NCBI GenBank assembly: GCA_964016885.1
Contig: OZ024741.1
Coordinates: 391,096,001 to 391,160,000, forward strand
Direction: 5' to 3'
Source of the DNA: Eledone cirrhosa
Lineage: Eukaryota
DNA: 64,000 nt
Positions 5,843 through 58,275 of this stretch are shown here, in pieces. The translations under genes and the position numbers were made by a program. The notes beneath the pieces are model-generated. The model was not told the origin of the DNA and made no database searches. It saw only the letters and a program-made list of their open reading frames with translations. Within the stretch, counting starts at the first letter, position 1, and each line of letters begins with the position of its first letter.

Positions 5843-6046
5843 GTAGTACACTGGAAGGTAATATCAGTAGTGGTAGAGCATTCAGTCCATGGGACTGTAC
5901 CGAGAACAATTGTTTCACCTTAGCTGATCCTCAGCTCGAGCTGAGGATCAGCTAGGATTCGTTTGCAATTATGCAAACAGCCTCTTTAAGCCATGTCAGT
6001 AGAATGACCCCGTCATTCTTGCTCTTCTGTTTGCATATAATCAGAA

Positions 6047-6090
6047 CGGCAGACACTAATGTTTCTGGGTCATTACTCTTCATCAGTACA
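6047..6090 (-). ncRNA. Degenerate minimal hammerhead ribozyme in a PLE-type terminal remnant (about 5843-6400)
   Basis: Minus strand gta-CTGATGA-agagtaatgaccca-GAAA-CATTAGTG-TC-tgc; tail with GAGTGCT-like motif at 5876-5884. Confidence 0.55.
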
Positions 6091-6645: not shown

Positions 6646-6816
6646 CGAATGTATATATAGTGTATTTTGCAATACACTGTATGCTTAATTAAAAGCATTT
6701 TGAAGACCTTACGCTATTGTTTTAAAGTAGTGACTATGTCACTTACTTCTATTTTCAGCAAACAAGGGGAGATAAGCTGACAGAGCTCTGTTTCATACTG
6801 TTGGTACTTATCAACA
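6645..6816 (-). mobile_element. Copy of the 9991-10410 PLE-terminal family, with U3-A8 hammerhead core at 6775-6814
   Basis: High similarity to 9991-10145; minus strand TTGATAA-GTAC..GTAT-GAAA-CAGAGCTCTG-TC-agct; 5' strand of stem I missing. Confidence 0.7.
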
Positions 6817-9295: not shown

Positions 9296-9373
9296 TATTC
9301 CCACTCTACTACCCTAAGTATTGAGTACTCTGGTGCGTTATGGTCCATCTGGTTCCTTGCCACATTTCCTTTG

Positions 9374-9375
<2 letters not shown>
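9296..9375 (+). mobile_element. Isolated PLE tail (same family as 41405 and 54255 ends)
   Basis: Reverse complement of 54255-54335; contains TTGAGTACTC. Confidence 0.75.
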
Positions 9376-9441
<66 letters not shown>

Positions 9442-9566
9442 TTACACACTTAAATATAAATGCATTTATATATACAAATGTATAAATGCATAGCTATATA
9501 CATACGTAAGTGTATGCATATATGTATGTAGATTTATATATATATATACCTATATATGTATGTAAG

Positions 9567-9862
9567 CAAAAAAGTGTTGGTAAAATCCAGTACTTCAGTA
9601 TGCGGATAGGAAGCACTCAACGAAGATATAGATTCCGGAGTTATAATAGTGACGAAACATAAGACAATTGCATGAACTCATAATCCTTTATTTACCGCTA
9701 TATATATTTCGATGATAGCCATTGTATGGCTATGACCTCATCAGGTAGTTAGTATGTTCCTGCCTGATGAGGTCATAGCCATACAATAGCTCTCATCAAA
9801 ATATATATAGCGGTAAATAAAGGATTATGAGTTCATACAATTGACTTATGTTTCGTTACTAT
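9567..9862 (-). mobile_element. Short fold-back PLE-derived element: tail plus inverted arms (9646-9748 / 9760-9862), each with a hammerhead
   Basis: Minus 9695-9748: ctac-CTGATGA-stemII-GAAA-TATATA-TA-gcgg; plus copy 9760-9813 has GAAA changed to AAAA. Confidence 0.85.
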
Positions 9863-9958: not shown

Positions 9959-10410
9959 TTAGAATTGTTGCTCTGAAATAGCTATATATATATGAATGTA
10001 TATATAGTGTATTTTGCAATACACTGTATGCTTAATAAAAAGCATTTTGAGGACCTTATGCTATTGTTTTAGAGTAGTGACAGACTCACTTACTTTAATT
10101 TCAGCAAACAGGGGGAGATAAAGCTGACAAGGCCTTGTTTCTGCAACCGCTCTGTATAATCAGTTCCTGATTATTTACTAGAATTCTATAAGAACCAAAA
10201 CATCCGGCATTTCAGCAAACGGGAGGAGTAGTTGGCTTTGATAAGCATCAATAAATGCAGAAACAAGGCCTTGTCAGCTTTATCTCCCCCTGTTTGCTGA
10301 AATTAAAGTAAGTGAGTCTGTCACTACTCTAAAACAATAGCATAAGGTCTTCAAAATGCTTTTTATTAAGCATACAGTGTATTGCAAAATACACTATATA
10401 TACATTTATA
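9951..10410. mobile_element. Fold-back element, about 155-bp arms (9991-10145 / 10256-10410) with about 110-bp spacer
   Basis: Near-perfect inverted repeat in (TA)n; other copies at 6645 and 25338. Confidence 0.85.
10210..10302 (+). ncRNA. Type-I hammerhead, U3-A8 variant, with long stem I
   Basis: tttcagcaaacgggaggag..ggct-TTGATAA-GCAT..ATGC-a-GAAA-CAAGGCCTTG-TC-agct..ctccccctgtttgctgaaa; one extra A before GAAA. Confidence 0.75.
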
Positions 10411-10580
10411 TATATATATATATATATATATAGATTTTGAGTTTATGTTGGTTGTATACCAACACCTCAGTATGCAGGCTGGAGCACCCGACGAAGTGCG
10501 CAGGTTGGTTTGGTTACTCCGGAGTAGTGTAAAATAAAGTTAAATAAAAGTCAAATGATTAAAATTTAGCTTCGTTTATT

Positions 10581-10635
10581 ACTGCTATATATATTTCAGT
10601 GACAGCCATCTTTGGCTGTGACCTCTTCAGGCAGT
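10581..10635 (-). ncRNA. Canonical minimal type-I hammerhead (left arm)
   Basis: Mirror image of 10875-10929. Confidence 0.88.
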
Positions 10636-10874
10636 TTGAATTAGTATGGTATAGACAAGTACATATGTTGTTTAGGTGTATGATATTGTCAATACTCTGA
10701 TATGCCCAGTTCCTTGTTGGGTTGTTACTTCACTGGGGAACTGGAGTCATATGAGAGATATGACTCCAGTTCCCCAGTGAAGTAACAACCCAACAAGGAA
10801 CTGGGCATATCAGAGTATTGACAATATCATACACCTAAACAACATATGTACTTGTCTATACCATACTAATTCAA

Positions 10875-10929
10875 ACTGCCTGAAGAGGTCACAGCCAAAG
10901 ATGGCTGTCACTGAAATATATATAGCAGT
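10875..10929 (+). ncRNA. Canonical minimal type-I hammerhead (right arm)
   Basis: actgc-CTGAAGA-GGTcACAGCCA aaga TGGCTGTcACT-GAAA-TATATA-TA-gcagt; predicted cleavage after 10924. Confidence 0.9.
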
Positions 10930-10990
10930 AATAAACGAAGCTAAATTTTAATCATTTGACTTTTATTTAACTTTATTTTATATATATATA

Positions 10991-11945
<955 letters not shown>

Positions 11946-19658: not shown

Positions 19659-20330
19659 CTGTACTATAAGTTTGGTAGAAATATCCAAGGGTAAGAGCAC
19701 TCAGTCCATGGGACGAGTTCAGTATAATTAGTTACAACAGTGACATATACAGGTACTTATGTTTTGTTGGGTTATACACCCCAACTTATTCAGCCTGTTA
19801 TATAAAATAAAAATGGCTACCTCCACAGGTTGATTTGAGATTTTTAAGGTAGAGTTCTTCAAGGACAGGTAATTTCGAATTTAGATATAAATAAACTTTT
19901 AGATAATGTTAAAAAGGTAACTATCAAAATAAAACTACAAAAGGGGTCGGAACTTGCACAAAGTTAGTAATTCAAAGAAATTAAATTCCTTGAAATCAAA
20001 ATGAATCAGTCTGGTCTATATCGTATTCTCAGATGGATTTCGCTTCGGGTGGACAGCGACTAAAGCGGTCGAGGAGGGTATTTAAACAGTGTTTCTCTGA
20101 AGCGAGTCACGAGAGTATATTCCACTTTTCCGAGTTAAATAATCAGCAAAATTTCGTCCCATTAACATAGGGGTGGATTTTTACAAAAGTAACGGCGCAC
20201 TATTTTCCATTAAGTGGAATGTATTAGAAAAAGCCACTCCTTATGTTAATGGGACGAAATCTTGCCGGCTATGTAACTCGGAAAAGTGGAATATACTCTC
20301 TCAACTCGCTTCAGAGACGTGCATCTCGCC
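19659..20330 (-). mobile_element. Truncated Nematis-like PLE: tail, degenerate hammerhead (19749-19798), 3' UTR, EN C-terminus with inverted duplication (20093-20182 / 20228-20319)
   Basis: FSIKWNVLEKATPYVNGTKSCRLCNSEK on + strand with reverse copy upstream; acagg-CTGAATA-..-AAAA-CATAAG-TA-cctgt (two core mutations). Confidence 0.75.
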
Positions 20331-25337: not shown

Positions 25338-25550
25338 AACCGCCCTGTATAAACAGTTCCTGATTTTTACTGGAATTCTATAAGAATCCAACATTCAAAA
25401 CTATAAAAAGAAGTAAGTGACTAAGTCACTACTATTAATCCAATAGCGTAAAGTCTTCAAAATGCTTTTAATTAAGCATACAGTGTATTACCAAATACGC
25501 TATATATACATCCATATATACATCGCTATTTCAGAGCACCAATTCTAAAC
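25338..25550 (+). mobile_element. Copy of the 10146-10410 family lacking the hammerhead hairpin, with tail
   Basis: Aligns by eye to 10146-10205 and then to 10305-10410; tail GCTATTTCAGAGCACCAATTCTAA matches the reverse of 9958-9983. Confidence 0.75.
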
Positions 25551-31059: not shown

Positions 31060-31062
<3 letters not shown>

Positions 31063-31269
31063 AAAAAGAAAAAAAAAACAGTAAAAAATGGTAAAGGGAT
31101 TTTCTCTCAGAATAACAACAAAACAATTAAATGCGGAAATCCCTATTTTGTAAATAAATGTTTTGATGTTATTCTGAGAGAAAATACTTTTACCATTCTC
31201 TACTGTTTTTTTTCTTCCTTTTTTATTATTTTTTTATATATCAACTCGTGTGTCACTTCTTAACATTCC
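31060..31269 (+). mobile_element. Short fold-back PLE-terminal element (relative at about 53880-54020)
   Basis: About 60-bp inverted arms; tail AACTCGTGTG resembles that of the 56381 element. Confidence 0.6.
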
Positions 31270-31325
31270 ATATATATATATATATATATAATATAAGATC
31301 AAAAGATGGTTAAAAGAGTTCCATG

Positions 31326-31396
31326 TATTTTATTATGCGCATTTCAAAAACAAATATCATCATGAGATGACATTTGCATTTTCGTCAGATAAAATA
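31326..31396 (-). ncRNA. Minimal hammerhead in left inverted repeat
   Basis: Mirror of 35574-35644. Confidence 0.85.
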
Positions 31397-34300
31397 GGGA
31401 GACATGATATGAAGGTTAAAAAACACTTGTGAATAGTGCAGTTTTAAATCAACATATAAAAAGAAATTTAAGATTGATGTGTGATATTTGGAAAAAAATG
31501 AGGAAATGTTGGAAATGATGAAAAAGAGGAGGAGATGAGAGTAAGTAAAGAATGATGGGGGAGGAGTATAATAAGGAAGGAGGAGATAGGAGGAGAGATG
31601 GGTGATAGAAAGAGAGAGATAGCCTTTATAACTGAGAAAAATATATTGTTTCACAGAGAGAGGTTAAAAGCCGTTGGAAGATAATATATAATTTAAAAGA
31701 ATTTGAAAATTGATGAAGAGAAATAAAATTATTAATGAAGAGAAAAAATTAAGAATAATGTTAAATTAAGGTTTGTATATTGAAGGGTTTAATAATATGT
31801 GCGATGAAAAGAAATTATTAATATGTATTAAGAATAATATTAAATTAAGGTTTGTATATTGAAGGGTTTAATAATATGTGCGATGAAAAGAAATTGTTAA
31901 TATGTATTATTAAAATTAAAATATTAATGTTATTAAGGATATAATGTGAAAAGAAGTAGAAGAGTGGATGAATTATGAATTTAGAGGAATTAGTTAGTGT
32001 TTAAGTTTGATTTTATGTAATGTAATATGTATGCGTAATATATGTAAATAGTTTGTTTACAAATGAGCGCAGAAAGCAAAGAAGAAAATAGTGTTTAAGG
32101 AAGAGAAGACTCTAACAACAAAATATATATGTTTATGAAGTATTTCCTAATGGTAATAATATAATGTAATAAAGGAGATTAGTTAGGGTTTAAGTTTGTA
32201 TAAAAAATCTTAAATTCAAGAGGACAAGAGCACCTTGTAAATCTCAAGAATACGATTTTAAACCTCAATTCCTCAAAAAATGTTTTAGTCCACTCCGACA
32301 AAACAAATAATTTATATGGTATATCTAAGGATAACTATAATAACCTTATCCTTAAAGAACTAAGGAAGAAATATCGCAAAACTAACCATGATAATTTAGA
32401 ATCCATAAACTTTGAAGCTTCTGAGATTATGTCAAAACTTGGCATCGAAAAAAAAACCGAACCATTTCTCCCAAGAACTCCGAGGATAAATCTCAAAGAT
32501 CACAAAAACAACTTTCGTACGGAACTACCTGTTAGACTAATCGCCCCCTCTAAATCAGATCTAGGGGTTGTTAGCAAAGCCATCTTGGATAGAATTACCC
32601 CACAGGTTCGTTCTAATTGCTCTACTTCTAACTTAAATTTATGGTTTGGTACATCTGAAGTAATTGGCTGGTTCAACAACTTGAATAAGAAAAACAAACA
32701 AAAATGTATTCAATTTGATATTGCCAGCTACTATTCTTCTATTTCGCTCTCACTTCTCAACAATGCTCTATCTTTCGCTTATAAATATTCAGACATCACC
32801 ACAGATGAACTTCACATCATTCTCACCGCACGTAAAACCATCCTAGAGTTCAACAATGAATACTGGACTAGAGCTGATACCTCCAACAACTTTGACATTA
32901 CAATGGGTGCTTCCAATTCATCCCAATTGACAGATTTAATTGGTATCTTTATTTTGAACTCTTTGAATCGGAAAATTCCTCAACTTCGCGGTGGAATTTA
33001 TCGGCACGATGGACTTTTACTATCTTAAATTGCAACATAGTTAACCTTAATATTATTAAGAACAATATACGTGATCTCTTTAACCAACATAACTTAAAAA
33101 TTGAATTTGATAACAACGTCAAACTAGCTAACTTCTTGGATATATCCCTTAATCTTGACACTGGCCTATAAAAACAATGAGAATCTAAATTATGTTAATT
33201 TTAAATCTAACTACCCCACTAACATTAAAAATGCTATAGTTAACAATATTGGAAAAAGAATATCAAACCTATCATCTAATAAAATATCTTTGATGCTAAC
33301 GCCAATTACTATAATAACGCGCTTTCTAAAGCCGGTTATCCTGATAAAATCAAATACAGTAAAGAAACCAATCCTAGAAGATCTTACAGTAAAATAATTA
33401 ATTATGATCATTCCAATAACTTTAATAAAAGACCTAGATACAAAAATATAATCTGGTATAATGCTCCTTTCTCCATCTCTATTAATAATAATATTCCTAA
33501 ATTATTCTTTAGTGCCCTAAATAAATGCTTCCCTCCCTCACATATCTATAGTAAAATATTTAACAAACATACTATAACATTTTCCTATTCCACTTCCTCC
33601 AACATCTCCAACATTATCTCTGAACACAACAATAAAATATTAAATACTAAATCACTTCCTTCCAACACTGAATGTCATAATAATAGCAGTAGTACTCCCG
33701 ATGTCATAGTTAACTCTGGGCTAGTTTCTGCAAACCCAAATACGACGTCAAACGTAACTTCGTCAAATGTTCTTAATACCAATCTAAATCAGGAAACTAT
33801 TATTCCTATAGTAAATAACTTCTCCAATCCAATTCCTCCTATAGATAACACTAGGTCAGTTGTTAATAACTCGGTTAATTTCTCTAATCGCAATTGTAAT
33901 TGCCCTGTTAAAAATAAATGTCCTCTCAACAACCATTGTCTCGAAAAAAACTTAATCTATGAATGTAAAGTTATAACTGACACCAATTCCTTTACCTATT
34001 TTGGCTCCACTTCCACCTCCTTTAAAGCCCGTCTTTATAATCACCATTCTCCTTTTAAATACCAACTTAAAAGAACCAACACAGCACTCTCAAAACTCAC
34101 ATGGTCCTTGAAAGACAAAAATATTAACTATAACATCTCTTGGAGGAAAGTTTGTTCTGCCTCTCCCTACTTGAATGCCTCTCTATCCAAAACATATAAT
34201 CTTTGTTTATGTGAGAAATTTACCATTATATCTAATTTAGATTCTATAATAAAAATAGACGCACTGAGTTATTTTCTCTCTGCTTGCATAAATTCCACAG

Positions 34301-35573
34301 AACATTCCATAAAGTATACAGCTAATATCTAATACTTTACCAGTTTAAAATCCTTTTTCTCAAAGGCATATATATATATTTCTTTAAAAATATACCCATC
34401 TTTCTACCTTATTTCAATATTATTTATTATACATTATATAACACTAGTTACTCATTCTATATCATTCCTATTTATCAATTCTCTTTCTTCCTCTTTTCTT
34501 TTAATTTCTAACTTCTAATCTGTACTTTTTCTTCCTAGATACTTCTCAATTCTTATTATTACTCACCACAATATATCCACTTTTCCTTCTTCCTTCATAT
34601 CATTGGCCATAAAACTTATTATTACCTTTTAAATACCTTATAGTATTACCTTTAAAAATCTTTCGTAAACATAAACATTTTTTGACGTTAGATTATTCCT
34701 CCTCAATTCATTATATTTTTTCTCCCTTTCATGCTCGTCTAACTTTTACATATTACATATCACAATACATAAAAACAAACTTAAACCCTAACTAATTTCC
34801 TTTATTACATTATATTATTACCATTAGGAAATACTTCATAAACATATATATTTTGTTGTTAGAGTCTTCTCTTCCCTAAACACTATTTTCTTCTTTGTTT
34901 TCTGCGCTCATTTGTAAACAAACTATTTACATATATTACGCATACATATTACATTACATAAAATCAAACTTAAACACTAACTAATTCCTCTAAATTCATA
35001 ATTCATCCACTCTTCTACTTCTTTTCACATTATGTCCTTAATAACATTAATATTTTAATTTTAATAATACATATTAACAATTTCTTTTCATCGCACATAT
35101 TATTAAACCCTTCAATATACAAACCTTAATTTAATATTATTCTTAATACATATTAATAATTTCTTTTCATCGCACATATTATTAAACCCTTCAATATACA
35201 AACCTTAATTTAACATTATTCTTAATTTTTTCTCTTCATTAATAATTTTATTTCTCTTCATCAATTTTCAAATTCTTTTAAATTATATATTATCTTCCAA
35301 CGGCTTTTAACCTCTCTCTGTGAAATAATATATTTTTCTCAGTTATAAAGGCTATCTCTCTCTTTCTATCACCCATCTCTCCTCCTATCTCCTCCTTCCT
35401 TATTATACTCCTCCCCCATCATTCTTTACTCTCATCTCCTCCTCTTTTTCATCATTTCCAACATTTCCTCATTTTTTTCCCAATATCACACATCAATCTT
35501 AAATTACTTTTCATATGTTGATTTAAAACTGCACTATTCACAAGTGTTTTTTAACCTTCATATCATGTCTCCC

Positions 35574-35644
35574 TATTTTATCTGACGAAAACGCAAATAT
35601 CAACTCATGATCATATTTGTTTTTGAAATGCGCATAATAAAATA
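35574..35644 (+). ncRNA. Canonical minimal hammerhead in PLE 3' repeat
   Basis: tattttat-CTGACGA-aaacGCAAATAT..ATATTTGTtttt-GAAA-TGCGCA-TA-ataaaata; predicted cleavage after 35636. Confidence 0.9.
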
Positions 35645-35798
35645 CATGGAACTCTTTTAACCATCTTTTGATCTTATATATTATTTATACTCCAGTCCTA
35701 CAAACTGTAGAGTGCTACTTATCCGATATCTGCATTGCTTTATTGTACTACAATGAAAACTCACCTCTTACATATATATATATACATACATACATACA

Positions 35799-36540: not shown

Positions 36541-36546
<6 letters not shown>

Positions 36547-36896
36547 ATTAAATAAATGGAAAACTATATTTATAAAACCATATTTATTTCATTATATATA
36601 TTTCGGGGATATCATATTAACTGCCAGCTTAAACCTCTTCAAATGAAGTCGGTGTTATAACGGTATGTCGAATCTATTTATCTATAAAACTGTTTATATT
36701 GTATTTTGTCTGATGAAGGCATAGCATATTGTTAATATGATATCCCCGAAATATATATAATGAAATAAATATGGTTTTATAAATATAGTTTTCCATTTAT
36801 TTAATATTGTAAATATACTCCAAATATTTGTCGAGTGCTTTTATATCAGTTATAAATATTTACTAGTTGTAACCCAACAATTTTAAATATAACTTT

Positions 36897-36898
<2 letters not shown>
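36541..36898 (+). mobile_element. Fold-back PLE-terminal element with hammerhead (36702-36767) and tail
   Basis: Arms 36541-36620 / 36731-36811; tattttgt-CTGATGA..GAAA-TATATA-TA-atgaaata; TCGAGTGCTT at 36831. Confidence 0.85.
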
Positions 36899-41347: not shown

Positions 41348-41406
<59 letters not shown>

Positions 41407-41497
41407 CGAAGGAAATGTGGTAAGGAACCAGATAGACCATAACACACCTAAGTACTCAATACTTACGGTAGTAGAATGTGTAATAGGAACAAGTATG

Positions 41498-41593
41498 ACC
41501 CCGACGGCAGAGCTCAAGCCGTTTCGACGGCTAATTCTGGACTAAATAAGAATTTTTAGCCTGGTAAATAAATAGCCGAACTTCTCAGGGGGT
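41498..41593 (-). ncRNA. Hammerhead-like motif with long stem II and atypical core CUGAGAA
   Basis: acccc-CTGAGAA-g..cggcta...tagccg.c-GAAA-CGGC..GCCG-TC-ggggt. Confidence 0.65.
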
Positions 41594-43816
41594 AATTCCA
41601 TATATGGGAAGATAGTAATTGCCAAGAGAATTGGTCAAAAATTTGTTGTAAGGTAGGTTAGGGGGAGTGGGAGAAGCCCAGTCAAGCATTGAAAGTGAAA
41701 TCTATACACCAGATTCTAAGGATAGTGTATAGAAGGTAGAAAAAAGTGTACTGGAGAAGGAGAGGGGGGGGGGGGGTGTAAAAGTAGGTAAATCGAAAGG
41801 GAGTAAACAAACGAGCCATTATAAAGATGAGGAGATAAATATATAAAAAACAAATTTATAAACAAACACCAATTTCTGTTTACTATTCCATCCCCAGAAT
41901 CCCCAAATCTCTCATTGGTATTGTTAAGCTATAGAAAAGTTTAATAGGCGGAGAAAAATGCTAAATACGGGATTGTAGTGAAAGCACTTTATAAAGCCAT
42001 CTTTACAGGGGATCTGACACCACTGCAAAAGTAGTACAATTAATCAGCTTCTTCCGCGACTGGGGATTTAAAATAACCCTACAAACGTACCTAACCCGTA
42101 TTATTTGTGCGTATGAGAATGTGTATAAAAATATATAAATAACTAATAATATATAATACATAAACTTATATAACTGTTAAAAATTTTAATAATAATAATA
42201 TATTCATACCTCATTATTGTAGATAGTGGAAGTGAGAGATCGAGATAGTAAATCATGAGGAAAGAGAGAAAAAGGAGATTTGATCGTAGAAACAAGAGAA
42301 GGGAGAAATGATCAATAGAGAGAGGAAAATAAGTTAAATCGTATAAACAATAAGTTAAATCGTATAAACGAACATTGCAAAAATAAATAGTAGAATTCTA
42401 ATAGAGAGAGGAAAATAAATTTAATCGTATAAACAAAGGGAGGAAGATATGCATTGTAACATATAAATAGCGTATAATTAGATAGGGGGGAAAGAATATT
42501 TAGGCACATGATGCGTGACCGTTTATTTTCAAAATCTTAAGTTAATTAGAAATAGTCAATTAATCAAATGACATAAGATTTTAGACTATAAAATTTTAAA
42601 GGATTTATATTATTGTATTATATCAGAGTTCAAGCAATTGTAACGTGAAAGAGATAAATTTATGTTTATCATAACTCCAAAGGTACTCACAAGTATATTT
42701 AAAAGTATATTAAAATTAAGAATATAATCAATATATTAGTAAAAAAAACATTAAAATTAAGATGTTATTAATAAGTCATAAAGCATTATAAATGTATTTA
42801 ATAAGATATTATTAAACCAGATTTATCTAGATATACACATTTGTATAATTTATATATAGACTATAAAGTTTAAGGTTTAAGATGATATTAGTCACTTATA
42901 TATAATATAATTACTGTCAAGAGTGTTATAAATTTGATTCGACTAGATTTTACTGTATTTAAAATTTTACATCAATTTAAGTACAAAAAAAATTATCAAC
43001 TTGGATCTAAGGAGACTTTTATACTATAAATGTATAATCATATCCTCGTGAATCGTAAATAACCATTCAAAGTAATTAAACGGTTTACAAGTCTGAATAC
43101 ATTCAAGGTATCAAATATATAAGGTATAAGATTTAGAAAATACAAAAACCAAAATTAAATGTATTTAAACAATCTAAAGGTCATACGTACTCAACAAGAG
43201 ATCAGGTTAACAATTTCAATGTTAAGGTAGAAACGCTTAATCTAATATTAATAATAGTATAAATAATAAAAGAATTACAAGAATTTTTAATCTGAGACAA
43301 TATTGTTTCACGCTCAGAGTTATTAAACGTCTAAATCATTTCACATTTATTCAATGTTTTTTCCTGATTTTTTTGTGAAGCTTGGAATGTAGCTGTAGCT
43401 TTGTGCAAGCAATTTGAGAATAATTCGCTTTTTTTGTTAATTAACTTATCATAATTATTAATTATTAATAGGGTCTCCATATCACAAAGATTGCAGTTAG
43501 GTGATACGGATGAATTAATGTAGACTTGGCTATTACAAAGTTTTGACCAACATATTGAGTACTCTAAATTTTTGTCTTTTAAGGACCATATGAGTTGTGA
43601 TAAAGAGGTAGATAATTTCTTATCCGGATTCGAAAAAGAGTGTTTGTGATTTGAATATCTTAATTTAAAGCTCGATGAAGTTGCACCTATATAGTTGTAG
43701 GTGATGTTATTTGCTTTAACGGTACATTTATAAACTAGGTTCTTATCAAGACAATTATTTTGCAGAGGGCAATTCGATCTATTTCTACAGTTACATTTCG
43801 ATTTACTGTTATTATT

Positions 43817-44003
43817 GTGGATTGGCAGTATCGGTAGAGGGTCGGACGCCATGCTTTCCAGCATAGTTACGTCCCCTTACGATCTGAGTTCAAATCCCAC
43901 CGAGGTTGACTTTGCCTTTCATCCTTACGGGGTCGATAAAATAAAGTACCAGTAATGCACTGGGTAATTGCTGGCCTTGTGCCTAAAGTAGAAACAATTA
44001 TTA
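43817..44003 (+). mobile_element. SINE family A inserted into the PLE ORF
   Basis: Near full-length match to other copies. Confidence 0.88.
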
Positions 44004-44570
44004 TAATTTAAACTGTACACGTTATCATTGCTAATATTTGGAGGTGTTCTATTGTGAGTGCTTAAATTAATGTTATTGTTATTCACAGTATCAATATTAT
44101 TGCTAATGTTAATATTGCCATTATCCCTAATTGTTTGTTGGTTATGATTAAGAATTCTACTATTTATTTTGGCAATGTTCGTTTATACGATTTAACTTAT
44201 TGTTTATACGATTTAACTTATTTTCCTCTCTCTATTGATCATTTCTCCCTTCTCTTGTTTCTACGATCAAATCTCCTTCTTTTTCTCTCTTTCCTCATGA
44301 TTTGCTATCTCGATCTATCACTTCCACTATAATGAGGTATGAATATATTATTATTATTTAAATTTTTAACAGTTATATAAGTTTATGTATTATATATTAT
44401 TAGTTATTTATATATCTTTATACACATTCTCATACGCGCCCTCTGTATTATATGCAATTTTTCATGTTTCAACTTAAGATATATAAATATTGAGTTTTGT
44501 CATAACTAACCACTGCCATGACTAAATTATAACCATCAACATAGTCAAGGTATGTCAGGCATCAACTTAC

Positions 44571-45532: not shown

Positions 45533-45599
<67 letters not shown>

Positions 45600-45600
<1 letters not shown>

Positions 45601-46058
45601 GTATATCTACCAACATATGTATACAGATGCATACCTATGCTAGCAAATTTATATGTTTTGTCTTAGTAACTTTGTGGTTCTATGCAAGGGGATGCAGAAC
45701 AATTATATGAAAGACGTAAATAAGAAAGTTATGAAAATTGACTTACTTACTAAAATTTCACTCCAACTAATTAGTTTCTGTGATTGATTCTTTTGAATTT
45801 GCCACTGACCAAGTAGGCAGTGAATTTTTCAATGTCTTGGAATTTAGTCCCCGCTCGCTTTTTTCCATCCACTGAATTATTTTTATATAAGTTCCCAGTG
45901 TCCTCGCATTGCCTGGAAGCTTAGCTGAGAATAGACTCCCTGATGACGTAAGGTTTCTCTGTGGATACGCTCCGTAACCATATTTATCCCTTTACAAAAA
46001 CTAATTAGTTGGAGTGAAATTTTAGTAAGTCAATTTTCATAACTTTCTTATTTACGTC

Positions 46059-46066
<8 letters not shown>
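45600..46066. mobile_element. Fold-back element (arms about 45704-45778 / 45997-46066) with mutated hammerhead at 45935-46015
   Basis: actcc-CTGATGA-cGTAAGG..CCTTTAC.-AAAA-CTAATTAG-TT-ggagt; the opposite arm retains GAAA. Confidence 0.75.
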
Positions 46067-53500: not shown

Positions 53501-54010
53501 ATATATGTATGTATGTATTGTAATTGCTCCAGCTACTAAGTGACCTCTGTCCGGACAGCGAAAGCTACTCCTTCATTCCTTTTCTCCACAAATGGTTTCC
53601 ATTTCCAGAAGAACGTATAGCCAACACGTCTTGTTGATAGATGACTTTCACCACTAAAACGGGTTTTAGAGAGTTCATTGGTGGTCGAATTAGGCATCTG
53701 AGAGTTCTTTTTTCAAGTTGGTAGTGCCCACCAAAACGGCTAAGGTCAACACTAAGAGAGAAAGAAAGAAAACTACAGACAAAAATGTGAACTTTTCTCC
53801 GTATATATGTATGTAAACAATTTTTTCACCCATATTTTTATTGTTCTTATTAATATGCAAATTAATTGCATTATACCCTTCTGTCGTGTAAAAAAGCGTA
53901 TAAGCTGAAACCGGTACAAATAATGCGGCAATTCCTATTGTGTAAATAAATGTTTTGATGTTATTCTGAGAGAAAATCCATTTAGCATTTTCTACTGTTT
54001 TTCTTTTTAC

Positions 54011-54081
<71 letters not shown>

Positions 54082-54166: not shown

Positions 54167-54250
<84 letters not shown>

Positions 54251-54254
54251 ATAT

Positions 54255-54459
54255 AATGAAGGAAGTGTGGTAAGGAACCAGGTGGACCATAACGCACCAG
54301 AGTACTCGATACTATTGGTAGTAGAGTGGGTAATAGGAAAAGGTCCAGGGCCCCGACGGCAGAGCTCAAGCCGTTTCGACGGCTATTTCTGGACTAAATT
54401 TAGTCCAGAAATAGCCGCCGAAATGGATTGAGCTCTGCCGTCGGGGTCCTGAACATTTT

Positions 54460-54463
<4 letters not shown>
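54255..54463 (-). mobile_element. Fold-back element of the 41405 family: tail plus about 66-bp palindrome arms centred near 54398
   Basis: ..GGCTATTTCTGGACTAAA|TTTAGTCCAGAAATAGCC..; retains only the 3' half of the hammerhead. Confidence 0.85.
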
Positions 54464-54492
<29 letters not shown>

Positions 54493-54659: not shown

Positions 54660-55116
54660 GAATAATTGTTTCTACTTTTGGCACAAGGCCAGCAATTACC
54701 CAGTGCATTACTGGTACTTTATTTCATCGACCCCATGAGGATGAAAGGCAAAGTTAACCTTGGCGGGATTTGAACTCAGAATGGCAAGGGACGTAACTCT
54801 ATGCGTCAAAGCATGGCGTCCGACTCTCTAACGATACTGCCATAAATGTGTTGAAGTGGTGGAATACCAATTTTAAAAATTGAGAGATAGTACTAATTAT
54901 TGGATCTATTCTAATCATGAGTTATTATATAGTGAATTGGCAGTATCGGTAGAGGGTCGGACGCCATGATTTCCAGCATAGTTACGTCCCTTTACAATCT
55001 AAGTTCAATTTCCGCCGAGGTTAACTTTGCCTTTCATCCTTACGGGGTCGATAAAATAAAGTATTAGTAATGTACTGGATAATTGCTGGCCTTGTGCCAA
55101 AAGTAGAAACAATTAT
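54660..55116. mobile_element. Head-to-head SINE A pair (- 54660-54843; + 54932-55116)
   Basis: Two near full-length copies in opposite orientation about 90 bp apart. Confidence 0.88.
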
Positions 55117-55287
55117 ATAGATAATATTTATAAGTATATTTTATGAAGAATTAAGGTTGCAAGTATATTTTACTTTATTATATTATATAACTCTTTGCTT
55201 ATATATATATATATATATTAATAAAAGGTGACAGTCAAGTTTGCAATTTTCGTCGAAAATTGCAAACTTGACTGTCACCACAGAATA

Positions 55288-56384: not shown

Positions 56385-58204
56385 AAAGAATAGAGGTGTA
56401 AGACACGAGTTATGATATATTGGTAAAAGGAAAAGAAAATGGTGACAAATTGTTCCCAGTGAAAAATAGTTTAATTAGGAATAAGTAAAAATTAGTAATA
56501 GTATTGGTTAGTATTCAGTTTTGGTTTTAAGTTTTACCGGTTGCGTATTTCTAATGCTTTTCAAAAATAATTTTGAGATAGAGCGCCCGTGATGTTTGCT
56601 CTAATCTGATTAGTTTTGGAAATTCTACCTGTTTTATGTAAAAAAAAGTGGCTCCAGATGTATGAAAAAATTATTGTGGTCAAAACAATTTTGATTGGTC
56701 GGTAGAGGTCATGTGAATGTTAAAAATTGATTTTCCGCCAAATGTAGGTTTGTCTCGGCTGATTGAGAAGTCACTGAAAAATAAGTCTTTCAAGACAAAT
56801 ATGTGTGTGTGTGTGTGTGTGTAGTAGTAGTAAAGAGGTTCGTTGTTGTGATAATGGTCAGCAGGGATGTGTGTGCGAACCGCAGCCTGCTGACAGTTCA
56901 AATGCCTATTAAGACAAGTGTGTGTGTGTGTGTGTGTGTGTAGCAGAGTAATTCGTGGTAGAGGGATCGGTCAGTAGGAATGTGTCTGTACGTGTGTGGG
57001 AGATATTTTAACATGTTAAAAGATATTTTTCAGCTCTTGTCTTATACGGAGAAGTGTGTGTGTGTGTGTGTATATGTCTCTTTGTATGTTAATGTACGCG
57101 TGTGTATGTGTGTATGTATATATATGTGTGTATGTGTGTGAGAGAATGTGTGTGTGTGTGTGTGTGGGTGGACCAGTATTTTTGTGATACTGGTGAAAAT
57201 GGTGTACATTATTCGATATTTTCAGTAAAAACGATTCTCTCAATAGAACATCAAAAACCTTAATAATAAAAGGTGTGAAATGATATATAGTATTGGCATA
57301 ATACCAAGGTGTGTGTGAGTGTCCAGATTGTACATACTGCAAGGGGAATCCATTAGGCCTTGCCGTATTGGAATACTTGTGTACAAATATGTATGTGCCC
57401 ATCAGTGTGAAATGCATGTGTGCGTATATGTATGTGTGTGTGTCGGCACGTTTATATCTATAGACATCAAAAGGTATGCAAATATGTGTGTATATTTGTG
57501 TTGCACCATAGAACATGAGTGTTTACGTATGTCATTGTGTTTATATGTGGATAGAGATGTATGTAAGATGTATGCTGATGTAGGTATGTATGTTGACGTG
57601 TGTATGTTGTGGGTTCGTCTTAGGGAGAAGTGTTTAGACGGGGTCCGTATTTGTTAATAAAGTGAGATTCCTTGCTGATGCGCTGGGTGTGGGTGGCATT
57701 ATCTTTAAATTTGTAGAGGGGAAAGATTCTGAAGTTGGGATGATTTTGGGCGGCACAGGTATCAATGTGTTCACTCAGTGGTATTTGCCTCTTTACTACT
57801 ACTACTACTACTACACACACACACACATATTTGTCTTGAAAGACTTATTTTTCAGTGACTTCTCAATCAGTCGAGACAAACCTACATTTGGCGCAAAATC
57901 AATTTTTAACATTCACATAACCTCTACTGACCAATTAAAATTGTTTTGACCACAATAATTTTTTCATACATCTGGAGCCACGTTTTTTACATAAAACAGG
58001 TAGAATTTCCAAAACTAATCAGATTAGAGCAAACATCACGGGCGCTCTATCTCAAAATTATTTTTGAAAAGCATTAGAAATGCGCAACCGGTAAAATTTA
58101 AAACCAAAACTGAATACTAACCAATACTATTACTAATTTTTACTTATTCCTAATTAAACTATTTTTCACTGGGAACAATTTGTCAGCATTTTCTTTTCCT
58201 TTTA

Positions 58205-58211
<7 letters not shown>
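56381..58211 (-). mobile_element. Truncated Neptune-like PLE: EN C-terminus (57620-57790), 3' UTR, about 424-bp inverted repeats (56415-56838 / 57788-58211), short tail
   Basis: RQIPLSEHIDTC..NFRIFPLYK..QRISKESHFINKYGPRLN is homologous to the C-terminus of ORF 2-2278. Confidence 0.88.
58060..58097 (+). ncRNA. U3-A8 hammerhead variant (mirror at 56531-56568), with A13C change
   Basis: attt-TTGAAAA-GCAT tagaa ATGC-GCAA-CCGG-TA-aaat. Confidence 0.55.

Positions 58212-58275
<64 letters not shown>

Follow-up and report, generated by a model that had tools for sequence, protein, structure and literature searches.

Head-to-head copies of a Penelope-like element 3′ end and a probable breakpoint hotspot in hammerhead stem II

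A loop-less palindrome built from two half-hammerheads

The window, i.e. the whole stretch of 64,000 nucleotides analyzed here, is animal DNA rich in repeats: it contains (TA)n tracts, remnants of LINEs and numerous fragments of Penelope-like elements (PLEs), and from its repeat motifs it looks cephalopod-like. The feature at 54255-54464 is a short PLE insertion, consisting of two head-to-head copies of a PLE 3′ end in (TA)n. Only 54333-54464 is palindromic, with perfect pairing of the inner 19 pairs, and 54255-54332 forms a tail on one arm. The left 145 nt of the feature align with a longer relative in the window (41400-41547; the copy starts at 41407). The left arm was annotated from this alignment, from the landmarks of the relative's hammerhead ribozyme (HHR) and from the relative's fold. 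No open reading frame is found in the feature itself, and (TA)n lies on both of its flanks, which would hide any target-site duplication. The feature and its closest copies are made up as follows.

54170-54254, no strand: (TA)n target microsatellite, left side
54255-54332, minus strand: 78-nt PLE tail, on this arm only; presumed interval between two reverse transcriptase (RT) start sites
54333-54398, minus strand: left arm body
54350-54354, minus strand: left arm, HHR stem I 3′ strand
54355-54356, minus strand: left arm, cleavage UC
54357-54373, minus strand: left arm, palindromic stem III
54374-54377, minus strand: left arm, GAAA
54380-54385, minus strand: left arm, basal stem II 3′ strand
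54392-54398, minus strand: left arm, apical stem II 3′ strand
54391-54406, no strand: head-to-head junction and palindrome centre, GGACTAAA directly followed by TTTAGTCC, loop-less
54399-54464, plus strand: inverted arm without tail, identical to the left arm at 59 of 65 positions
54465-54490, no strand: (TA)n target microsatellite, right side
41407-41640, minus strand: longer relative, with tail (41407-41483) and complete type I HHR (41490-41596); reference for read mapping
9296-9380, plus strand: same family, a copy consisting of the tail alone and stopping at the tail boundary, with (TA)n runs on both sides

At the matching place, the relative reads GGACTAAA-TAAGAATT-TTTAGCCT. Comparison with this copy did not find the native 8-nt loop TAAGAATT at the junction of the feature, and the native partner strand is missing as well: TTTAGTCC is not the 5′ strand of the hairpin, TTTAGCCT, and is instead the plain reverse complement of GGACTAAA. 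A first-pass annotation had matched the centre of the palindrome to the apical stem II hairpin of the relative. This correspondence is borne out for the centre and its left half, and does not extend to the right half, which is the left half inverted. The junction is compatible with two cDNAs that each stop at the equivalent of 41547 and share a 2-nt overlap, AT.

The feature holds just the 3′ half of the HHR, twice: the stem I 3′ strand, the cleavage site, stem III, GAAA and the stem II 3′ strands. Because the CUGANGA core is not present in its arms, it cannot be an active ribozyme. The type I HHR with palindromic helix III, situated near the 3′ end, is complete in the relative, where the core reads CUGAGAA, with one deviation from CUGANGA. 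On the minus strand the core lies at 41588, GAAA at 41525 and the cleavage site at 41503; the bipartite stem II spans 41526-41581 (56 nt), and the predicted fold gives stems I, II and III as expected for an HHR. Judged from this sequence with its deviating core, self-cleavage of the relative is a putative activity. Traits of EN+ PLEs are seen in the feature, namely an inverted 5′-truncated copy of the 3′ end beside a direct copy, and a tail at one end only.

Beside the relative, a plus-strand stretch (41880-42098) resembles PLE RT motifs 6-7, with a profile score that is not significant (HMM E=0.54). At 42098, 751 reads depart from the window sequence, and by eye the letters that follow read VNFLDVTLD in frame. 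The sequence past ~41880 is probably a different piece and not the relative's own UTR. Treating 41407-44437 as one element, and as a same-family counter-example, was dropped, as reads leave the window sequence and depth drops at 42098.

Breakpoints in the window and in the family

Rfam gave no match in the whole window at the gathering score, and the PLE open reading frames of the window were not recognized by Pfam. A descriptor scan found 19 type I HHRs in the 64 kb, one per 3.4 kb, and none in the reversed window. These HHRs belong to many families, and most have a palindromic stem III. Twelve inversions in the window were examined, including the following.

10001-10400, no strand: inversion in another HHR family; short tail-bearing arm ends at the stem II base, long arm tail-less; neither contains the other
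36541-36898, no strand: inversion in another HHR family; short arm without tail, ending in the stem II loop (36621); long arm carrying both an HHR (36710-36759) and the tail
45597-46066, no strand: inversion; short arm, with a probable tail, stops 3 nt into stem II (45781); long arm without tail, HHR 45940-46010
10433-10980, no strand: counter-example; 223-nt perfect arms both pass the whole HHR and meet 122 nt upstream, with a tail on the left arm
31291-35772, plus strand: Hydra-like PLE, near full-length and broken, with RT, GIY-YIG, HHR (35582-35636) and tail; its 909-nt tail-less inverted arm passes the HHR; counter-example and model of the architecture
56416-58212: inverted repeat of ~420 nt with a one-sided 38-nt tail; it flanks 950 nt rich in microsatellites, and an HHR was not detected

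The tail at 10001-10400 is confirmed as family sequence by the copy at 25498-25548. In all nine inversions with both outer ends readable, exactly one arm carries a tail, and a defined 3′ start of its own connects each arm to target DNA. The shorter arm is the tailed one in 10001-10400 and 45705-46066 (also in 11054-11942, if that is one insertion); therefore, neither arm in these two can be a copy of the other.

The first-pass annotation had listed several arm ends within stem II or at the HHR 5′ edge. The end at 36621 does lie inside the stem II loop, those at 10145 and 45781 are merely 2-3 nt into the stem II base, beside GAAA, and the one at 9748 is, as claimed, at the HHR 5′ edge. The supposed end near 6816 proved to be that of a solo truncated copy without inversion, in which BLAST homology stops at 6794 and the remainder was placed by eye. 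Counter-examples had been omitted from that list: other inversions end upstream of the HHR core by 122 nt (10758), 807 nt (34775) and 40 nt (55253), one (11795) ends 138 nt downstream of the cleavage site, one (20094-20317) ends inside the endonuclease coding sequence, and another (56416-58212) ends in an element where no HHR was detected. With the feature left out, stem II holds the end of three of the seven HHR-bearing inversions, against an expectation of 1.0 under a uniform null (P=0.058); other families read through the HHR in 4/7. The window alone thus shows weak enrichment in stem II and does not prove it.

Several further structures were observed in the window. A complex insertion at 10990-11942 combines an arm with a tail, a tail-only copy in inverted orientation, a (CA)n run, and a long arm that lacks a tail and holds an HHR (11590-11657). 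A near-perfect palindrome of 53 nt, with 26-nt arms around a 1-nt spacer, occupies 55227-55279 and lies 40 nt upstream of an HHR core. The 3′ end of the element is missing from its inverted arm. It is the best fold-back candidate in the window, yet it is outside stem II. Two minus-strand HHRs at 5905-6086 lie ~150 nt apart in a retrozyme-like arrangement, and a perfect 34-nt palindrome (5921-5954) is centred on stem I of one of them. In the palindrome at 31061-31225 and 53880-54015, the long arm starts directly after the GAAA-CCGG-TA box of a degenerate HHR in the relative; by eye, truncation at the cleavage site is possible. At 54661-55118, an abundant SINE-like repeat occurs in two copies, 78% alike, in opposite orientation and 80 nt apart; they are probably two insertions forming a palindrome-like pair. 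The tails of two related HHR families (9565-9645 and 10433-10529) align weakly over ~50 nt, and this alignment suggests that the PLE tail may hold a conserved signal.

For the family of the feature, four public runs were aligned to 41407-42606 at 80% likeness. The best-matching organism supplied X3 (contigs) and X9 (RAD reads); from other organisms, X7 and X8 contributed 10 and 8 pieces only. X3 depth summed per 40-nt bin was 1.39M, 0.78M (tail), 3.59M, 1.33M, 0.157M, 0.014M, 0.003M and 0.048M. Contig depth thus drops ~75-fold across stem II and the core, so that short arms outnumber long ones by this factor in X3, where summed depth is not copy number, varies 3-5-fold with alignability and would show a deeper cliff if subfamilies had another loop II. 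Over 45 nt, the raw-read depth of the tail decreases by only 19%, compared with the ~75-fold fall over 200 nt in contigs. As a rough estimate, the family comprises on the order of 10^5 arms, given depths of 5-20 for individual contigs and the presence of four arms in the 64 kb. X9 molecule ends sit on AATT sites (41533, 41594, 41871 and 42038); X9 depth is shaped by restriction digest at AATT, and was therefore not used as evidence. Long pieces in X3 and X7 span stem II gap-free (records 4, 5, 10 and 13), which makes the relative a fair reference for the long form.

Loose ends pile up at 41543, where consensus agreement over 83 contigs is 0.37, indicating that the flanks are many and different. 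A further 28 loose ends at 41547 have a mixed consensus and include a 41547/41533 junction with a 3-nt overlap. In all nine opposite-strand joints the long arm ends in stem II (41528-41582), orientation and far ends being deduced from table numbers and not from the sequences. Five of them end at 41542-41544 (P ~0.002 under a uniform null) and are joined with no unaligned letters between. The partner ends scatter over 41443-41506, five of them inside the tail. Joints 41525/41467, 41542/41528, 41543/41435 and 41543/41517, with strand unstated, were left out of this count. No joint is listed with arm ends less than 35 nt apart, although the feature is such a case, indicating that near-perfect palindromes are under-detected. 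In X8, i.e. in another organism, one contig (record 19) holds a piece that starts at 41543 after unrelated sequence. Microhomology at the joints is 0-1 nt in 9/9 against the reference, or 0-3 nt with the letters of the feature; 83% of random pairs give 0-1 nt, so that this is chance level.

We also observed a second, tail-less 3′ end joined to (TA)n that recurs at 41483, in 247 contigs of X3 and 4001 reads of X9, plus 86 further X3 contigs. Loose ends mark both 3′ starts (41409/41416 and 41483/41497). Side lengths would put the far end of the long arm at the tail boundary in four joints (41483, 41483, 41487 and 41496), and by the same reckoning the arms of joint 41472/41528 would not overlap.

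41542-41547, minus strand: probable family breakpoint hotspot in the apical stem II 3′ strand, where the RNA:cDNA hybrid turns AU-rich and weak

We consider the stem II hotspot probably real in the PLE family of the feature. The breakpoint concentration claimed by the first-pass annotation is in this respect upheld by the family reads, through the nine joints, the mixed loose ends at 41543 and the depth cliff; the inversions of the window alone do not prove it.

Two primers or one

On balance, twin priming from two RT start sites followed by end joining explains the feature best, and we prefer it, with some reservation, to folding back of the cDNA. From the observed anatomy, the one-sided tails, the second (TA)n-joined 3′ end and the breakpoint pile-up, we infer two primers, RT drop-off and joining of ends. 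Two target-primed reverse transcriptions would start on opposite strands of a (TA)n site. The first cDNA would start at the outer 3′ end of the RNA and give the tailed arm; the second would start 78 nt inside and give the tail-less arm. The template would be uncleaved RNA, because both arms pass the cleavage site. Both cDNAs would stop in the apical stem II 3′ strand, at the transition from a GC-rich to an AU-rich stretch, and their ends would be joined with an overlap of 0-2 nt, AT in the feature; a shared stop base would yield a palindrome without a loop. The ribozyme would be at most a passive landmark for cDNA ends and not a primer.

The first-pass annotation had proposed that RT stalls in the HHR and that the stem II cDNA folds back to prime the second strand, which for the feature requires that the loop was lost later. 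Breakpoints do cluster in stem II, its cDNA is predicted to fold once copying extends at least to 41562 (-5.1 to -7.4 kcal/mol, z ~ -3), and at some of the 41547 loose ends the sequence runs on into the inverted strand, with a 3-nt overlap. The short 5′ palindrome at 55227-55279 looks alike, albeit outside stem II, and self-priming has already been proposed for PLE palindromes in the available text of PMC3846280. However, no hairpin is predicted for a cDNA that stops at 41547 (0 kcal/mol). Fold-back needs a cDNA that reaches 41555-41562 and should leave the loop in the product, but the feature has neither the loop nor the native 5′ strand, and the predicted junction form occurs in none of the nine joints. 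Furthermore, the G-U pair of the apical stem in RNA becomes a mismatch in cDNA, depth is already down ~4-6-fold, on a noisy estimate, before the 5′ strand of the hairpin, and joint microhomology is at chance level. The arms are nested in the feature itself, but do not contain each other in 10001-10400 and 45705-46066. Nor does the position of the stop point to a stall at the HHR: the stronger stems I, III and basal II are passed, and the drop-off would lie in the weak apical stem II. HHR-less Naiad PLEs form the same inversions and tails, according to the parts of PMC8557442 available, and the ribozyme is therefore not required for them. Fold-back priming thus appears unlikely, though it may account for a minority of insertions, since near-perfect palindromes, the class it would produce, are under-detected; the DNA-level priming role that had been assigned to the ribozyme is unsupported.

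It is similarly improbable that the arms inherited their end from a master RNA already ending in stem II. The ~75-fold excess of short arms is what a successful non-autonomous derivative would give, the ends gather near the tip of the palindrome in the window, and the effect is much weaker in other families. Against a single master flank stands the mixed sequence past 41543 (agreement 0.37 in 83 contigs); in addition, partner arms vary from joint to joint, and the single X8 contig places a 41543 start after unrelated sequence in another organism as well. We give equally little credence to ordinary 5′ truncation with distance decay, compounded by artefacts from diverged subfamilies, the RAD restriction site and selectively chosen window examples. 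The cliff does begin where conserved GC-rich sequence meets the AT-rich loop, the conserved block past it is only ~24 nt, X9 ends fall on AATT sites, the window enrichment has P=0.058, and the sequence beyond ~41880 is probably not the relative's UTR. Divergence, however, would not predict five joints at 41542-41544 without unaligned letters. The long pieces of X3 and X7 cross stem II gap-free, and the 19% fall of raw-read tail depth over 45 nt contrasts with the ~75-fold contig fall over 200 nt.

Returning to twin priming, the predicted melting temperature of a 10-nt RNA:DNA hybrid falls from 32-48 through 21 to 8 degrees over 41533-41554, and is also low near the second start site. In this model a weak hybrid would account for the position of the hotspot as well as ribozyme structure does. 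A more far-reaching reading is that the two RT starts of the PLE serve dimeric two-strand priming, with stem II as a built-in cDNA terminator and joining point for both cDNAs, mass-producing half-ribozyme palindromes of 60-140 nt. We regard this as rather doubtful; if true, the ribozyme would have a role in transposition that does not depend on cleavage, and inverted pLTRs and tails would share one mechanism. Should the hotspot reflect only AU-rich drop-off within a single family, it adds modestly to repeat annotation.

Known systems and searches beyond the window

In LINE-1 twin priming, the inverted part is mostly non-overlapping. The second start here differs in lying at a fixed site of the RNA, and the two arms frequently carry the same sequence. 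The likeness lies in a second priming at the target, two joined cDNAs and an inversion on the 5′ side, as summarized in the available part of a review (Ostertag and Kazazian 2001 via PMC10760644). Two nascent cDNAs on opposite strands are conceivable in the family of the feature by analogy with the purified Poseidon PLE protein PAc. As far as the accessible text of PMC11167929 goes, PAc nicks and extends both target strands, its RT starts at two sites that bound the tail, and it uses uncleaved RNA, HHR cleavage not being needed; its HHR overlaps the ORF start. Inversion junctions and cDNA ends within the HHR are not treated in that text.

The portion of PMC3846280 available describes inverted 5′-truncated copies and palindromes at junctions, and puts forward self-priming on an antisense template as a hypothesis. 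Like the EN+ PLEs with inverted 5′-truncated pLTRs in this source and in the consulted part of PMC8557442, the feature has a head-to-head 3′ end, a tail at one end, a junction palindrome and an AT-rich microsatellite target. Tails in the window are mostly ~45-110 nt (78 nt in the feature's family), compared with 30-40 nt in the available text of these two papers. Copies here are mostly just 60-140 nt long. The accumulation of ends in stem II is not described in the same portions. The Hydra clade, as presented in the available text of PMC8557442, shares (TA)n insertion and a canonical 3′ HHR with the window elements; the feature itself has no ORF. A tentative link of the feature to Hydra comes from its architecture and from the weak RT-like stretch beside the relative. 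Neighbouring elements (32204-34332 and 43331-43876) have DKT, CxCX5C and, at the C terminus, GIY-YIG, and match RWK/DKT proteins.

PLE hammerheads have been found in pLTRs, including opposite-strand pairs, and solo copies are widespread, according to the part of PMC4209133 available. The type I hammerheads described there have a CUGANGA/GAAA/UH core, palindromic helix III and long helix II, as here; the relative differs in its CUGAGAA core and bipartite 56-nt stem II, and the feature in holding the 3′ half twice, with no core. Non-LTR retrozymes (10.64898/2026.07.22.740005, available in part) are likewise abundant, non-coding, PLE-derived and equipped with type I HHRs. They are head-to-tail tandems with whole HHRs, whereas the feature is head-to-head with half an HHR; with no head-to-tail units each bearing a whole HHR, it was ruled out as a retrozyme.

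Inverted repeats, tails, HHRs and the self-priming hypothesis are already known for PLEs. What is likely new here is the sharp family-wide end point inside the ribozyme, and the junctions likely argue for two primers rather than self-priming. A full-text search of mostly open papers, in their main texts, returned nothing on PLE stem II breakpoints or PLE twin priming, and the available text of the octopus repeat paper makes no mention of ribozymes or palindromes. The origin of PLE inverted repeats and tails and the role of the hammerhead are stated as open questions in the accessible parts of PMC8557442 and PMC11167929. The family of the feature preserves junctions naturally and in great abundance, with a sharply defined end point within the ribozyme, and in this record self-priming and twin priming become countable as loop kept or not, and arms nested or not.

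A family-specific pattern gave no match in metagenome and viral contigs, and a scan of viral contigs found no Hydra-type endonuclease. A generic HHR pattern matched at least 120 loci in viral contigs, which were judged likely chance matches. In metagenome contigs, a Hydra-type endonuclease was present in 80 loci, 38 of which have a sense-strand HHR 83-212 nt after the match. These 80 loci hold one distinct 3′-end inversion, which reads through the HHR and is too few for a test. The Hydra-like PLE of the window (31291-35772) has a 1.25-kb UTR ahead of its HHR, compared with the 83-212 nt of the metagenome loci, and carries an Asn-rich insert between RT and endonuclease. In two metagenome loci (L147, 2847-3211; L148, 635-999), three differing sense-strand HHRs stand in a row after one Hydra-type endonuclease.
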